Source: Bacteroidales bacterium
GTDB lineage: Bacteria; Bacteroidota; Bacteroidia; Bacteroidales; WCHB1-69
Assembly: GCA_045534635.1 (NCBI GenBank)
Contig: JAZSKB010000038.1
Coordinates: 7,778-71,777, forward strand
Length of the DNA: 64,000 nucleotides
Reading direction: 5' to 3'
Position 1 is the stretch's first letter. Every line of letters starts with the position of its first letter. The position numbers were made by a program, and so were the translations under genes. Shown piece by piece: positions 23,380-28,135 of the stretch. The notes beneath the pieces are model-generated. The model was not told where the DNA came from, did not search any database, and saw only the letters and a list, made by a program, of their open reading frames with translations.

Positions 23380-23944
23380 TTTTTATTACACCTACTCTTT
23401 TTTATGGATTTTCGGCTTCCTCCTTCTCGATTTTTGACACCTCAAAAATAATAAAAAAATATATACAAAGTATCAAAATAAAAAAATTTTTTTTTTTATT
23501 ATAAAACAATAAATTACACAATAAAAAAATTATAATTTTACAAAAAGTTTGAAATTTTATGACGCTGAAAACAATTAATATGTAGAAATTCGTTTATACC
23601 CCCTTTCTTAATTGATTATTTACAAATCGTAGGGAAAATTTACAATTTCTGATTTCTCTTGTTCTAAAAAAGTTTCCTAAATTTAAATTGTATATTATGA
23701 CCATAATGAAAAAAATCATCGAAAAAGAGTTTGGGAAAACGTTAGTTTAAATCTATAATTATTCTATCATAAATTAAAATTCCGAAATATGAAAACATTT
23801 AGTGTCAAACAATAATATACATATTACTTGATATCTACAATGCTATATAAAAATTTACAAATATTGAAATAATTTATCTTTACATTTTGGACATATAAAA
23901 TTGAATATTTATTTTTTAGTACTATTTTATATTAAAAAAAATGT

Positions 23945-23952
23945 TATCTTTG
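23945..23952 (+). promoter_or_regulatory. -7 box TATCTTTG for the sulfur-relay operon.
   Basis: It lies 22 nt upstream of the ATG at 23974, at the end of a 590-bp AT-rich non-coding region. Confidence 0.45.
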
Positions 23953-23973
23953 CAAATTATATAGTACAAAAAT

Positions 23974-24216
23974 ATGGATAAAATGAAAAAAGAGTGTCCA
24001 AACATGGCTAATTGTCAGATAATAAAAGAAAAAGGATTTGTTCCAGATGAACAAATAAAACAACAGTATGTTAGTCATTATTGTATAGCAGGCGAAGAAA
24101 ATTTTTCAATATGCAAACGTTATCAGACGAAACAAACTTTAGGTTTTTGTCCAGATTTTGTATTTCCAGATTCTACATATAATATAGATGAAATCATGGA
24201 AAAGTGTGAACAATAA
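23974..24216 (+). CDS. Small Cys-rich protein (80 aa, 6 Cys), unknown family.
   Basis: CPNMANC, HYC, SIC, GFC and EKC are all present. It is the first gene of a tightly spaced same-strand cluster. Confidence 0.5.
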   Translation: MDKMKKECPNMANCQIIKEKGFVPDEQIKQQYVSHYCIAGEENFSICKRYQTKQTLGFCPDFVFPDSTYNIDEIMEKCEQ

Positions 24217-24239
24217 ATTTATTTATAAAATCAATAATT

Positions 24240-24533
24240 ATGGCAGATTTGAATTTTGATGGAGATGGATTTTTAACGAATCCTGAAATATGGAATGAAG
24301 AAGTTGCAAAACAAATTGCAGAACAAGATGGTATTAACATGACAGACCAACATTGGGCAATTGTTCGCGTAATTAGAAATAATTACAATGAAAAAGGAAA
24401 TGCTCCAATGATTAGAACTATTTGTAAAGAAACAGGTTTGAAATTGAAAGATATATACGAGTTGTTTCCATTAGGTCCAGCCAGAGGAGCCTGTCGAGTG
24501 GCAGGGCTACCCAAACCAGATGGTTGTGTATAA
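24240..24533 (+). CDS. DsrC/TusE-family sulfur carrier carrying both C-terminal cysteines.
   Basis: The C-terminus is ARGACRVAGLPKPDGCV. It has a penultimate Cys and a second Cys exactly 10 residues upstream, which is the DsrC-type Cys-x10-Cys arm. Confidence 0.8.
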   Translation: MADLNFDGDGFLTNPEIWNEEVAKQIAEQDGINMTDQHWAIVRVIRNNYNEKGNAPMIRTICKETGLKLKDIYELFPLGPARGACRVAGLPKPDGCV

Positions 24534-24567
24534 TGCTAAATATTTAATTATCAAAAAAAATAGTATT

Positions 24568-25197
24568 ATGATTTGGTATCATTATTTTAGTTTAGCCGCC
24601 TTATTGGTTTGTATTATTGTAATGTTGATACGCTTTATCCATTTGATAAAAATGGGTAATCCAAAAGATTTATCTCAAAAAAAAGGAAATATTTTTCAAT
24701 CGGAGGTTTATTCTTATACGATAGCGATGATGCCAAACAAAAAAGAATCGGCGTATTTACATATTTTTTCTTTTACCGCAGGTGTATTATTTCACATTGC
24801 TACATTATTGAGTTTTGTTCTCTTTGTGCTATTCTTTTTTATTGCCCCACAAGCAATGTTATGGAATATACGTTGGATATTATCATTGATAATATTAATA
24901 GGTGCATTTAGTGGTTTTGCACTATTTATCAAACGAATGTTAGTAAAAAAAATGAGAAATTTGTCAAATTTAGACGATTATTTGTCAAATTTTTTAACAA
25001 CATTTTTTCAAATGTGTACAATTTTGTATTTATTATTAGGAAATAATATTGCACCATTGTATTATATTGTATTTGGAATTTTATGTTTGTATATGCCAAT
25101 AGGAAAATTGAAACATGTATTGTATTTTTTTGCAGCACGTTATCATTTAGGATTTTTCTATGGTTGGCGAGGTTCTTGGCCTCCTAAAAAACATTAA
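24568..25197 (+). CDS. Polytopic membrane protein, NarI/DsrM/HdrE-like candidate (about 5 TM helices with His pairs).
   Basis: The start is corrected to MIWYHYF. About five hydrophobic helices are visible. His pairs sit in helix 2 (LHIFSFTAGVLFH) and the last helix (KHVLYFFAARYH). The family call is inferred from context. Confidence 0.5.
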   Translation: MIWYHYFSLAALLVCIIVMLIRFIHLIKMGNPKDLSQKKGNIFQSEVYSYTIAMMPNKKESAYLHIFSFTAGVLFHIATLLSFVLFVLFFFIAPQAMLWNIRWILSLIILIGAFSGFALFIKRMLVKKMRNLSNLDDYLSNFLTTFFQMCTILYLLLGNNIAPLYYIVFGILCLYMPIGKLKHVLYFFAARYHLGFFYGWRGSWPPKKH

Positions 25198-25202
25198 TTA
25201 TT

Positions 25203-26513
25203 ATGAGCAAATTGACAAAAGAACAAATAGAAAATGCAATATCTGTATTGAAAATAAGACCAGATACAAAATTGGAATCTTATTTAAGTGCATGTGTGCA
25301 TTGTGGTTTATGTGCAAAAAGTTGTATGTATTACAAAACAATGCACGAAGATAAATTTATTCCAGCAAGAAAAGTAGAATTAGTGGCTTCGTTGTATCGT
25401 TATTATTGTACAACAATAGGAAGAATACTTCCTTTTTTGGTAAATGCTCGTCCTTTGGACAATAAAATGGCAGCAGATATGATAGATTCACTTTTTGGTG
25501 CTTGTACCATGTGTGGTCGTTGTGTTAAACATTGTTCCGTTGGTGTTGATATTGCTTATGTCGTTCATTTTGGTAGAAGAATGTTGTCAGCAATGGATTT
25601 GGTTCCTCAATCATTACAATCTACTGTAGATGCTGCTTTGGAAACAGGCAACAATATGGCAATTCCTACAGAAGATTTTGTTGATACCATTAAATGGATG
25701 GAAGAAGATTTGCAAGATGAATGCGGTCCAAAAGCTACAATTCCTTTAGATGAAACGGATAAAAATATACTTTATACCCTTAATCCTCGAGAAGCAAAAT
25801 TTTTTCCGCTTTCTATTGCCGCAGCGGCAAAAATATTTTATGCCGCCAAAGAAAGTTGGACATTATCAACACACATGTATGATGTTACCAATTATGGACT
25901 TTTTAGTGGTAATAACGAACATGCTGCTTGTATTGCCAAACGTTTACACGATGAAGTAATTCTGAAACGATGTAACGAATTAGTGTTGGGAGAATGCGGT
26001 CATGGTTCTCGTGCTAATCGCTGGGAAGCCCCCAATTATTTAAATCAATCGTTTGAATATAATACCATTACAATGGTAGAATTAATTAATAATTATATCC
26101 GAACAAAGCGTATTTATTTAGATAAATCGCTTAACAATGAATTGGTAACTTTGCACGACCCTTGTAATTTAGTACGTAATGGAGGTCTGCTCAATGAATT
26201 ACGCTTTGCCGTTAAAAGTTCAGCAAATCATTTCGTAGAAATGACACCTCATGGAATGGATAATTTTTGTTGTGGTGGTGGCGGTGGTCAATTAGCAATG
26301 AGTGAATACAATGAAAGACGACTTAAAATTGGTGAAATTAAAGCCGAACAAATTAGAAAAACTGGTGCTAAAATTGTAGTTACTCCTTGTCACAATTGTG
26401 TTGACCAACTTTCACAACTAAATCAAGTATATAAATTAAACATTAAAATAAAAACCATAGCCGAACTTGTTGCTGATGCTTTGGTAATAAATAATATCGA
26501 AATAGAAAAATAA
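25203..26513 (+). CDS. DsrK/HdrD-like Fe-S protein (2x[4Fe-4S] ferredoxin motifs + CCG domain).
   Basis: CVHCGLCAKSC and CTMCGRCVKHC, then the C-terminal FCCGGGGGQL...TPCHNC (CCG...CxxC signature). Confidence 0.8.
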   Translation: MSKLTKEQIENAISVLKIRPDTKLESYLSACVHCGLCAKSCMYYKTMHEDKFIPARKVELVASLYRYYCTTIGRILPFLVNARPLDNKMAADMIDSLFGACTMCGRCVKHCSVGVDIAYVVHFGRRMLSAMDLVPQSLQSTVDAALETGNNMAIPTEDFVDTIKWMEEDLQDECGPKATIPLDETDKNILYTLNPREAKFFPLSIAAAAKIFYAAKESWTLSTHMYDVTNYGLFSGNNEHAACIAKRLHDEVILKRCNELVLGECGHGSRANRWEAPNYLNQSFEYNTITMVELINNYIRTKRIYLDKSLNNELVTLHDPCNLVRNGGLLNELRFAVKSSANHFVEMTPHGMDNFCCGGGGGQLAMSEYNERRLKIGEIKAEQIRKTGAKIVVTPCHNCVDQLSQLNQVYKLNIKIKTIAELVADALVINNIEIEK

Positions 26514-26536
26514 TAGTAATATAAAAAATATTAATT

Positions 26537-27691
26537 ATGATATATTTAGACAATTCTGCAACAACATATCCAAAACCAGATGTTGTTTATGATTTTATGA
26601 TAAATTTTTATCGTAAACATGGTGTAAACCCCGGACGTTCTGGATTTGATGCCGCTATTGAAACAGAAGAAATTGTTTTTAATACAAGAAAAATGCTTAC
26701 TGAATTGTTTAATGGTGGCGATGACCCAAATCGTTTGACATTTAGTTACAATGCAACTGATTCGTTGAATATTATTTTGCAAGGTCTTGCAGAAAAAGGA
26801 ACTCATGTTATTACCACAATGTTAGAACACAATTCTGTACTGCGTCCATTGCATTGTATGCAAGAACAAGGCATTATAGATGTAACTTACGTTCCTTTTG
26901 ATGAAAATGGATATGTTCATCCTGAAGATATAAAAAAGGCTATTCGTAAAAATACCAAATTTGTAGTTTGTACACATAGTTCCAATGTGATAGGTACAAT
27001 ACAACCATTAGCAGAAATAGGAAAAATTTGCAAAGAAAATGGTCTTATTTTTGTTGTTGATGGTAGCCAAGGAGCGGGAGCCTGTGAAGTGGATATGGTA
27101 GCAGCAGGAATAGATGTTTATGTTTTTACTGGTCACAAATGTTTAATGGGACCAACGGGAATAGGTGGTTCTTATGTTAGAGAAGGCGTTGAAATTCGTC
27201 ATACTCGTTTTGGTGGAACAGGTGTAAGAAGTGCAATAAAAACACATCTTGATGAATATCCTTATCGATTGGAAGCCGGCACATTAAACCTTTTAGGTGT
27301 TGCTGGTTTGAATGCTGGTGTTAAATGGATTAAAGAACAAGGTATTTCTAAACTTCATCAACAAGAAATACTTTTGTGGGACCGTTTGCGTAAAGGCTTA
27401 CAAAATATTGATGGCGTAAAAACATATTGTGCTGTTGATACTGCAAATCAAAATCCTGTTTTAAGTTTCAATATCAATGGATTTGAAGCAGGTGATGTTG
27501 GTATGATGTTAGATGTTGATTATGACATTGCTTGTCGTACTGGTTTGCAATGTGCTCCAAAAGTGCATGAAAATATTGGTACTTTTGATATTCATGGAAC
27601 AGTACGTTTTAGCGTAGGAGCATTTACTACAGAACAAGATATTGACACAGCAATACAAGCCGTAAAAGAAATTGCTGCTATCAAAAATTAG
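26537..27691 (+). CDS. Class V aminotransferase-fold cysteine desulfurase (SufS/CsdA-like).
   Basis: PLP lysine in FTGHKCLMGPTGIGG. Candidate catalytic Cys in ACRTGLQCAP. Confidence 0.8.
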   Translation: MIYLDNSATTYPKPDVVYDFMINFYRKHGVNPGRSGFDAAIETEEIVFNTRKMLTELFNGGDDPNRLTFSYNATDSLNIILQGLAEKGTHVITTMLEHNSVLRPLHCMQEQGIIDVTYVPFDENGYVHPEDIKKAIRKNTKFVVCTHSSNVIGTIQPLAEIGKICKENGLIFVVDGSQGAGACEVDMVAAGIDVYVFTGHKCLMGPTGIGGSYVREGVEIRHTRFGGTGVRSAIKTHLDEYPYRLEAGTLNLLGVAGLNAGVKWIKEQGISKLHQQEILLWDRLRKGLQNIDGVKTYCAVDTANQNPVLSFNINGFEAGDVGMMLDVDYDIACRTGLQCAPKVHENIGTFDIHGTVRFSVGAFTTEQDIDTAIQAVKEIAAIKN

Positions 27692-27740
27692 TAACTATAG
27701 TCTATTCAAATATTCTTTTTAACAAAATATTTATAAAAAT

Positions 27741-27774
27741 AATTACGACTCAAAAGGAATTTTGAGTCGTAATT
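27741..27774. terminator. Strong hairpin between convergent genes (probably a bidirectional terminator).
   Basis: AATTACGACTCAAAA (27741-27755) / TTTTGAGTCGTAATT (27760-27774), a perfect 15-bp stem with loop GGAA. Confidence 0.55.
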
Positions 27775-27859
27775 GCTTATTTAAACTTATTTAAAGAATG
27801 AAACGTATTATTCAAAAATGAAGATTAAAGGTAACAAAAGCATTAAATAAAAAAAGATG

Positions 27860-28135
27860 CTATTCTTCTTCTGTTTTTTCTGCTTTATCAGCGGCTTTGC
27901 CAGTAGCTTCGGTTACTATTATGTTACGACCCTGAACTTCTGTTCCGTTTAACATTTCAATAGCCTTGCGACCGTTTTCTTCTTCCATTTCAACAAATCC
28001 ATAACCTTTACTTCTTCTATTGACTTTGTTGATAATTACTCTCGCTGCTGTTACTTCTCCATAGGGTTTGAACAACTCTTCTAAATCTTTTCCTTTTCTT
28101 AATGCAAAAGGAAGGTTTCCAATAAAAATATTCAT
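27860..28135 (-). CDS. RRM-type RNA-binding protein.
   Basis: RNP-2 is IFIGNL and RNP-1 is KGYGFVEM. The -7 box is at 28162-28169 (minus strand TACCTTTG). Confidence 0.9.
   Translation of the reverse strand: MNIFIGNLPFALRKGKDLEELFKPYGEVTAARVIINKVNRRSKGYGFVEMEEENGRKAIEMLNGTEVQGRNIIVTEATGKAADKAEKTEEE

Follow-up and report, generated by a model that had tools for sequence, protein, structure and literature searches.

A five-gene operon on the plus strand (positions 23974-27691) of a 64,000-nucleotide stretch of Bacteroidales DNA, hereafter the window, encodes in order a Cys-rich protein (cys80), a DsrC-family sulfur carrier, a membrane protein (M), a cytoplasmic iron-sulfur (Fe-S) protein (K), and a cysteine desulfurase. 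The window comes from an animal-gut Bacteroidales genome of 2.2 Mb that is estimated to be 97.9% complete (G000). The parts can be identified, their catalytic residues are intact, the genes are tightly co-conserved, and no sulfite reductase is detected alongside them. Somewhat short of an even chance, these parts may run a DsrC sulfur cycle that is independent of DsrAB, fed by cysteine, and reset by the membrane module; we infer every sulfur-transfer step of this cycle and its direction of electron flow.

The original prediction, made from the letters of the window, had read these five plus-strand genes as a two-cysteine DsrC, a five-helix membrane protein with His pairs, a DsrK/HdrD-like protein, and a cysteine desulfurase behind a Cys-rich protein, with no DsrAB in view. 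All five open reading frames (ORFs) and all five family assignments are confirmed, and its readings of the two Cys of the carrier, of the helices and His pairs of M, and of the missing DsrAB hold up. Its readings of the promoter, of the closeness of K to DsrK, of the quinone link, and of the distribution need qualification, given below with the evidence.

Co-conservation of the Operon

The genes were surveyed in 121 Bacteroidales genomes, one per family and each at least 90% complete, with thresholds of E <= 1e-60 for K, at least 110 bits for DsrC, and E <= 1e-90 for the desulfurase family TIGR01977. K is present in 16 of the 121 families, namely that of the window and 15 of the 120 others. 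DsrC occurs in exactly the same 16 genomes and in 0 of the 105 others, and a TIGR01977 protein is encoded by all 16 K-positive genomes as against 16 of the 105 K-negative ones. Among the neighborhoods of the best 80 K-related loci, about 50 have the genes arranged as dsrC-M-K-desulfurase, which bears out the treatment of these genes as a unit, and the flanking genes vary (FTHFS, hisIE, UDP-glucose dehydrogenase, priA). These best 80 K relatives come from Bacteroidales or Bacteroidota metagenome-assembled genomes (MAGs), plus two Ignavibacteria. The module had been called unusual for its phylum. This is an overstatement, since 383 species-representative genomes contain relatives of K, as do 15 of the 120 other Bacteroidales families sampled.

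The Two-Cysteine DsrC

The second gene (24240-24533) encodes a 97-amino acid protein that matches the DsrC profiles PF04358 (E = 7e-36; 123 bits, cut-off 24.9) and TIGR03342 (105 bits, cut-off 53.5). Its tail, ...ACRVAGLPKPDGCV, places CysB at Cys85 and CysA at the penultimate Cys96, 11 positions apart. Both residues are invariant in all 56 orthologs aligned, as is Cys62, and the tail consensus of this set is AC[RK][VIL]AGLPKP[DE]GCV. The DiSCo criterion that sets a functional DsrC apart from TusE or RspA (PMC8477390) tolerates one mismatch to the motif AGLPKPTG(not N)C. Here the motif reads AGLPKPDGC, with a single change (T to D) and a Gly, not an Asn, before the Cys, and the final residue is Val, as in solved DsrC chains. 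The closest relatives in the Protein Data Bank (PDB) are DsrC proteins of sulfite reducers (E = 1e-27 to 1e-21), and the sole PDB chain deposited as a sulfurtransferase (7syb) is a weaker match (3.5e-11). An identity as TusE was rejected, as the TusE model NF008562 gives 72 bits against a cut-off of 191 and the genome has no DsrE-family partner (PF02635).

A DsrC-family protein of only 83-102 bits is carried by 22 K-negative genomes. Twenty low-scoring proteins were fetched for comparison, 17 from K-negative genomes and three that are second copies in K-positive ones; every one has a single Cys, an ...AGIPKPxSCV end, and Ser, Thr, or Ala at the place of CysB. Because all 20 are single-Cys proteins and K pairs with the high-scoring form in 16 of 16 genomes as against 0 of 105, the two-Cys form is specific to the K-linked set. 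The single-Cys, TusE-like paralog is about 103 amino acids long (101-104) and well conserved across its 20 loci (L129-L148), and in the genomes G021, G064, and G109 it is a second copy beside the two-Cys form. The third cysteine of the two-Cys form, Cys62 in TICKETG, is specific to the clade and is replaced by Thr or Ser in two solved DsrC chains. It may act as an extra relay site.

The Fe-S Protein K

K (25203-26513; 436 amino acids) contains the Pfam domains CCG and Fer4_8 and scores below the cut-off of every NCBIfam model that it matches: TmcB (280 of 735 bits), HmcF (278 of 750), and DsrK (NF045796; 228 of 400). The earlier description of K as DsrK/HdrD-like is right as to the CCG domain, the two CX2CX2CX3C motifs, and the wider group, but the DsrK cut-off is not reached and TmcB and HmcF score higher. 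In 81 aligned sequences, the two CX2CX2CX3C motifs, LGECGHG (Cys265 and His267), Cys321, Cys356-Cys357-Gly358, and Cys396-His-Asn-Cys399 are invariant. There is one CCG motif, and of a second only the Cys of GECGH is left.

For comparison with genuine DsrK, 30 loci were fetched (about 720 bits on NF045796, from the single family f137) and eight of their proteins were aligned with the K clade. The GECGH of K aligns exactly with that of all eight and corresponds to Cys329 and His331 of Archaeoglobus fulgidus DsrK, which are strictly conserved (2026 cryo-EM preprint 10.64898/2026.08.25.746951; 2024 PNAS paper, PMC10861901). The last CCG ligand differs: it is Cys399 (CHNC) in 81 of 81 members of the K clade and Asp (CAID, equivalent to A. 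fulgidus D500) in the eight genuine DsrK proteins, which come from the same phylum. Where a DsrK homolog of A. fulgidus belongs to a dsrMK arrangement (AF0544, AF0547), this position is still Cys, and HmcF and TmcB have T/GECGH plus a single CCG motif in common (PMC10861901). The Asp has been argued to tune the DsrK cluster for an oxygenated, sulfite-derived sulfur intermediate (preprint 10.64898/2026.08.25.746951). Because Cys replaces this Asp, the all-Cys cluster site of K, which is of the type seen in Hdr and two-subunit DsrMK proteins, would fit a disulfide or persulfide substrate.

These motifs place K in the wider single-cluster DsrK/HmcF/TmcB group, in which it resembles the two-subunit DsrMK type. 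A DsrK of the DsrMKJOP type was rejected on the score of 228 of 400 bits, when genuine members reach about 720, and on the Cys in place of Asp. The only PDB sequence match of K is the CCG domain of EtfD (E = 1e-12); EtfD and HdrD were themselves rejected as identities, having two CCG domains against the one CCG motif of K. A second CCG cluster lies outside the window on contig C40, at about 19.5-26 kb (L091-L093), and encodes a Fer4 protein (233 amino acids), a CCG protein (353), a Pyr_redox_2 flavoprotein (339), and a 591-amino acid protein that combines Fer4 with two CCG domains. The set resembles HdrCB accompanied by a flavoprotein.

The Membrane Protein M

The ORF of M as called spans 24520-25197. 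Alignment with 61 orthologs moves the start to Met17 (nucleotide 24568), where translation most likely begins, giving a protein of 209 amino acids (24568-25197). M matches no Pfam family at E <= 0.1, Nitrate_red_gam (PF02665) included, and phmmer finds no PDB relative even at E = 10. Its sole sequence-profile match is a weak one to HmcE (17 bits, cut-off 275). Among its neighbors in a protein language model are carriers of PF02665, which is a lead only.

Structure prediction is more informative. The AlphaFold2 (AF2) model has five long helices at a mean confidence (pLDDT) of 91, and its best fold match, and the only confident one, is NarI (Foldseek probability 1.0, TM-score about 0.5; Z = 10.9), followed by the membrane domain of EtfD (Z = 9.7 over 190 residues). 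The expectation of a Nitrate_red_gam/DsrM-type protein is thus borne out by the fold but not by the Pfam profile. His pairs are found in the second transmembrane helix (His65 and His76) and in the fifth (His183 and His193), equivalent to His81, His92, His199, and His209 in the numbering of the full ORF. Three of these are invariant in 62 of 62 sequences, 55 of the 62 retain the fourth, and all four are placed as in NarI. The positive-inside rule, read from the sequence, gives a predicted NarI topology, and M is presumed to be a di-heme cytochrome b, with the four His as putative bis-His ligands of the two hemes.

DsrM-1, the quinol-oxidizing type of DsrM, has a continuous third helix that lacks both the loop insertion and the pair of occluding Arg residues, and in DsrM-2 the site is occluded (preprint 10.64898/2026.08.25.746951). 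In the model of M the third helix (residues 99-125) is predicted to be unbroken.

A Dedicated Cysteine Desulfurase

The last gene (26537-27691) encodes a SufS-like (group II) cysteine desulfurase of 384 amino acids, which scores 436 bits on TIGR01977 (cut-off 377), 331 on SclA (cut-off 525), and 252 on SufS (cut-off 475). In an alignment of 60 sequences, the pyridoxal phosphate (PLP)-binding Lys201 is kept in 58 and the catalytic Cys339, which is of the SufS type (RTGLQCA), in 57. The enzyme is 71-85% identical to the K-linked members of other families, with a mean column identity of 81%, and only 29-43% identical to K-unlinked TIGR01977 paralogs. Two annotated K-unlinked loci, both in K-negative Bacteroidales, are selenium operons with the orders selA-selB-[TIGR01977]-yedF-selD (L150) and yedF-[TIGR01977]-...-selD (L158), and most other K-unlinked loci have a matching gene-size pattern. 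In a maximum-likelihood tree, with one mis-clustered row (L049) disregarded, the 24 K-linked rows share one branch (support 85/62) and the selenium-context rows form two other clades.

The desulfurase of the operon thus belongs to a dedicated, K-linked branch. It is an extra desulfurase, because the genome also has a housekeeping SufS (546 bits) and, likewise at another locus, a NifS-like enzyme. An identity as SclA was rejected on the score of 331 of 525 bits, the lack of selD, and the different branches of the selenium-context paralogs. A complex prediction for two copies of the desulfurase with DsrC (score 0.12, mark 0.32) returned no verdict and is not used as evidence.

Absence of Sulfite Reductase and Related Enzymes

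A search for siroheme sulfite reductases of the NIR_SIR family (DsrAB, AsrC, or any other) found none in G000 and none across the 16 K-positive genomes, each at least 94% complete. DsrAB, the partner by which a functional DsrC is also recognized, was thus not found in any of them. The DsrE family (PF02635; TusBCD and DsrEFH) was likewise not found in G000. There is no molybdopterin oxidoreductase in this genome, and thiosulfate, tetrathionate, or polysulfide reductases were rejected as the source of sulfur. The best candidate for selD in G000 scores 50 bits against a cut-off of 125, a level also reached in all 14 control genomes. Desulfurella amilsii was rejected as a precedent for DsrC and DsrMK without DsrAB, since it has DsrAB.

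Proposed Mechanism and Alternatives

In the cycle that we tentatively favor, the TIGR01977 desulfurase would take up the sulfur of L-cysteine as a persulfide on Cys339, leaving alanine, and would hand it to DsrC, at Cys96 of the flexible C-terminal arm. Sulfide could then be released either by attack of Cys85, yielding H2S and an intramolecular DsrC disulfide, or via Cys265 of K. K, docked on the cytoplasmic face of M, would reset DsrC to the dithiol with two electrons drawn through the hemes of M. The net reaction would be L-cysteine + 2 e- + 2 H+ -> L-alanine + H2S, an electron sink that yields sulfide without a sulfite reductase. A broader form of this proposal is doubtful: that Bacteroidales of gut and sediment, with some Ignavibacteria, might run a hitherto unrecognized, membrane-coupled "cysteine-sulfur respiration" in which DsrC carries sulfane sulfur that the dedicated desulfurase takes from cysteine, and a minimal DsrMK-like complex reduces it to H2S. 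Such a respiration would be an energy-linked electron sink and would supply animal guts with sulfide from a new source that needs no sulfite reductase.

Several observations weigh against a cysteine-fed cycle driven from the membrane. Under standard conditions, thermodynamics disfavor menaquinol as the reductant of a disulfide or persulfide. The same architecture, fused in EtfD, runs toward quinone reduction, and because EtfD, which matches both M and K, passes electrons to menaquinone, the architecture alone does not settle which way electrons flow. The desulfurase gene is missing at the locus in some carriers (e.g. L015-L018, L021, L022, and L027), and at some loci neither dsrC nor M adjoins K. 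The module had been described as menaquinol-linked, but none of the quinone markers tried is above cut-off in G000, which lacks MenA, MenG, MenB, MqnA, NuoH, NqrF, the b558 fumarate reductase cytochrome, and cytochrome bd at that level; in its family-mate G039 and in G002, likewise, nothing above cut-off was found for MenA, MqnA, MenG, MenB, NuoH, b558, or cytochrome bd. These three genomes retain the genes, yet show no visible source of electrons for M.

Other carriers are better equipped. Among the 16 K-positive genomes, the b558 fumarate reductase cytochrome, cytochrome bd, and MenG are each above cut-off in 12, NuoH in seven, MenA in six, MqnA in five, and MenB in two. Because fumarate reductase and cytochrome bd are present there, menaquinol is a plausible electron donor in most carriers, although it is unsupported in G000. 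The sole quinone-related trace in G000 is a divergent MenA-like prenyltransferase of the UbiA family (C36:13696-14445; L095:1459-2460), which scores 89 bits against a cut-off of 264 and whose ORF overlaps the start of a radical SAM gene.

The parallel with EtfD also leads to an alternative in which electrons flow the opposite way. M and K would then oxidize DsrC, either from dithiol to disulfide or from a Cys96 persulfide and Cys85 thiol to a trisulfide, and pass the electrons to the membrane; oxidized DsrC would then act as an activated donor of sulfur, or else another thiol would discharge it. DsrMK(JOP) has been proposed to work in this direction in sulfur oxidizers, as EtfD does for electron-transfer flavoprotein (ETF). 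Electron flow from thiol to menaquinone is downhill, the fold of M matches the EtfD membrane domain (Z = 9.7, 190 residues), the EtfD CCG domain is the only PDB sequence match of K, and EtfD reduces menaquinone (PMC13083937). On the other hand, the acceptor of a DsrC trisulfide (rDsrAB) was not found in the 16 carriers tested, G000 lacks the quinol oxidases and fumarate reductase that would re-oxidize quinol, and EtfD has two CCG domains and no single-cluster site of the GECGH type, as against the one CCG motif of K. Oxidation of DsrC is on balance unlikely. So is a protective or housekeeping role, in which DsrC, as a dithiol reductant recharged from the membrane, would remove persulfides and polysulfides in the sulfide-rich gut, the desulfurase's own persulfide included, with no part in bulk electron disposal. 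Its chemistry would be identical to that of the favored cycle, the DNA of the organism occurs in at least 18 animal-gut sequencing runs from at least 10 studies, and the survival of the operon in small genomes where a respiratory chain cannot be detected fits a low flux. Nevertheless, a dedicated and extremely conserved desulfurase (81% mean column identity) that makes persulfide is odd in a system for its removal, and carriers occur only patchily (16 of 121 families) though exposure to sulfide is general among gut anaerobes.

The remaining alternatives concern the destination of the sulfur. A biosynthetic relay of the IscS-TusA-TusBCD-TusE type, in which loaded DsrC would supply tRNA or cofactor thiolation and M and K would repair the oxidized carrier, is suggested by the common family of DsrC and TusE (TIGR03342), by the rule that such relays pair a desulfurase with a carrier, and by a sister TIGR01977 subfamily that lies beside the carrier-like YedF and SelD. 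We consider it quite improbable, given that the TusE equivalog score is not reached (72 of 191 bits), that no DsrE/TusBCD protein was found in G000, that single-Cys and two-Cys forms co-occur in G021, G064, and G109 and so are not interchangeable, and that known relays are not characterized by perfect coupling to a redox module in the membrane. The weakest rival, selenium handling, would make the desulfurase a selenocysteine lyase and let DsrC and K reduce a selenotrisulfide to selenide. SclA is indeed the second-best model for the desulfurase (331 bits), and its paralogs sit in selA-selB-yedF-selD operons; however, G000 has no selD (50 of 125 bits), the SclA cut-off of 525 is not reached, and the K-linked enzymes branch apart from those in selenium contexts, leaving this role very improbable.

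Operon Boundaries, cys80, and Neighboring Genes

With the corrected start of M, the gaps between the five genes are 23, 34, 5, and 23 nucleotides. A candidate -7 box of the Bacteroidota type, TATCTTTG, lies on the plus strand at 23945-23952, in a 594-nucleotide intergenic gap. The box that the original prediction named is present 22 nucleotides 5' of the cys80 start codon, but the motif itself is near chance in the window: TAnnTTTG occurs 136 times in this AT-rich sequence as against 115 +/- 11 expected. A sigma-70 promoter scan gave nothing above shuffles. For TATCTTTG as a promoter box, position alone is suggestive. Downstream, a hairpin with a 16-bp stem and T-rich tails on both strands (27740-27775) lies between the desulfurase gene and a convergent gene (27860-28135), and is likely a bidirectional terminator that closes the operon. 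Gut DNA contigs match the operon at 90-99% identity and diverge just 5' of the candidate -7 box (window 23923-23956); the sequence 5' of the promoter differs among strains.

The first gene, cys80 (23974-24216), encodes a Cys-rich helical protein of 80 amino acids that belongs to an unannotated family, with no Pfam or NCBIfam match. The AF2 model is a small helical domain (pLDDT 94) for which Foldseek gave no PDB fold match. The family comprises 153 representative clusters at E <= 0.001, and its wider membership conserves Cys8, Cys14, Cys37, Cys47 (in CKR), and an LP[ND] motif. Of the 80 related loci, 12 carry a cys80 gene 5' of dsrC, as the window does, and cys80 is an optional accessory of the operon. 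Three distant relatives lie on short contigs among unrelated neighbors, and none of the three is near dsr genes.

Other neighbors recur at smaller sets of loci. A gene for an LplA-type lipoate-protein ligase stands directly 5' of dsrC in three MAGs (L003, L004, and L005), an arrangement that recalls, by analogy, the lipoate-binding proteins linked to sHdr systems. At six loci where K has no adjacent dsrC or M (L045, L046, L048, L050, L051, and L069), a PatB-family C-S lyase (497 bits) is encoded directly 5' of K, and in four of these six a BioF/Kbl-type PLP acyltransferase follows 3' of K.

Habitat, Expression, and Significance

At least 18 animal-gut sequencing runs, from sheep, bovine, and fecal samples in at least 10 studies, contain DNA of the operon. 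Two RNA-type bovine libraries contain short contigs on K (25464-25651 and 26052-26392) and on the desulfurase (26828-27103), for which carry-over of DNA is possible; they give a weak hint that the operon is transcribed. No description of the operon was found in full-text searches, which do not reach subscription papers, nor in the papers on DsrMKJOP, DiSCo, and Dsr evolution. New here are the pairing of K with a two-Cys DsrC, the contrasts with single-Cys and selenium-context relatives, the Cys-for-Asp ligand, the EtfD parallel, and the quinone gap.

DsrC and DsrMK are taken to indicate either dissimilatory sulfite reduction or the oxidation of sulfur. A conserved DsrC/DsrMK-like unit with no detected sulfite reductase in hundreds of Bacteroidales species, abundant animal-gut ones included, bears on that practice. 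If the favored cycle operates, it would be a new enzymatic source of gut H2S that is independent of sulfite reductase, metagenomic hits to dsrC and dsrMK would have to be read differently, and the operon would offer a simple natural system in which a single non-cubane cluster of the DsrK type acts on a persulfide or disulfide. The survival of the operon where no quinone system is detectable raises the question of what feeds or drains the heme subunit.

Relation to Known Systems

The closest likeness is to the two-subunit DsrMK of Gram-positive and archaeal sulfite and sulfate reducers (DsrM-1 type; AF0544, AF0547). These systems likewise have a two-Cys DsrC with an AGLPKPxGCV arm, a small NarI-like membrane subunit (presumed di-heme in the operon) without J, O, and P, and a K with two cubane motifs, GECGH, one CCG motif, and Cys as the last ligand (PMC10861901; preprint 10.64898/2026.08.25.746951). 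The operon differs in that its 16 tested carriers lack detected DsrAB, K reaches only 228 of 400 bits as a DsrK, M is unseen by Nitrate_red_gam, a cysteine desulfurase is encoded as the proposed sulfur source, and DsrC has the extra invariant Cys62. DsrMKJOP, the menaquinol:DsrC-trisulfide oxidoreductase of Desulfovibrio, Archaeoglobus, and Chlorobia, has in common with it the non-ligating Cys in the C-x-H of K and DsrC as substrate; the operon, in contrast, has no J, O, or P, and K has Cys399 where DsrK has Asp. HmcEF and TmcBC of Desulfovibrio give the top NCBIfam scores for K and, through HmcE, the sole profile match for M, but these scores are far below the cut-offs of 735, 750, and 275 bits, and the operon contains no genes for cytochrome c or periplasmic Fe-S partners.

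Mycobacterial EtfD and methanogen HdrDE also join a five-helix di-heme domain to a cytoplasmic 2x[4Fe-4S]/CCG module, and no solved structure other than EtfD matches both M (by fold, Z = 9.7) and K (by sequence, E = 1e-12). EtfD is one fused, HdrDE-like chain fed by ETF, and EtfD and HdrD have two CCG domains, whereas the operon divides the module between two genes, has one CCG motif, and has DsrC as the proposed partner. In the IscS-TusA-TusBCD-TusE relay and the selenium operon, as proposed here, a PLP desulfurase loads a small Cys carrier that is encoded alongside it. The carrier of the operon, however, is a two-Cys DsrC and not a single-Cys TusE or YedF, and its proposed consumer is a membrane redox module.

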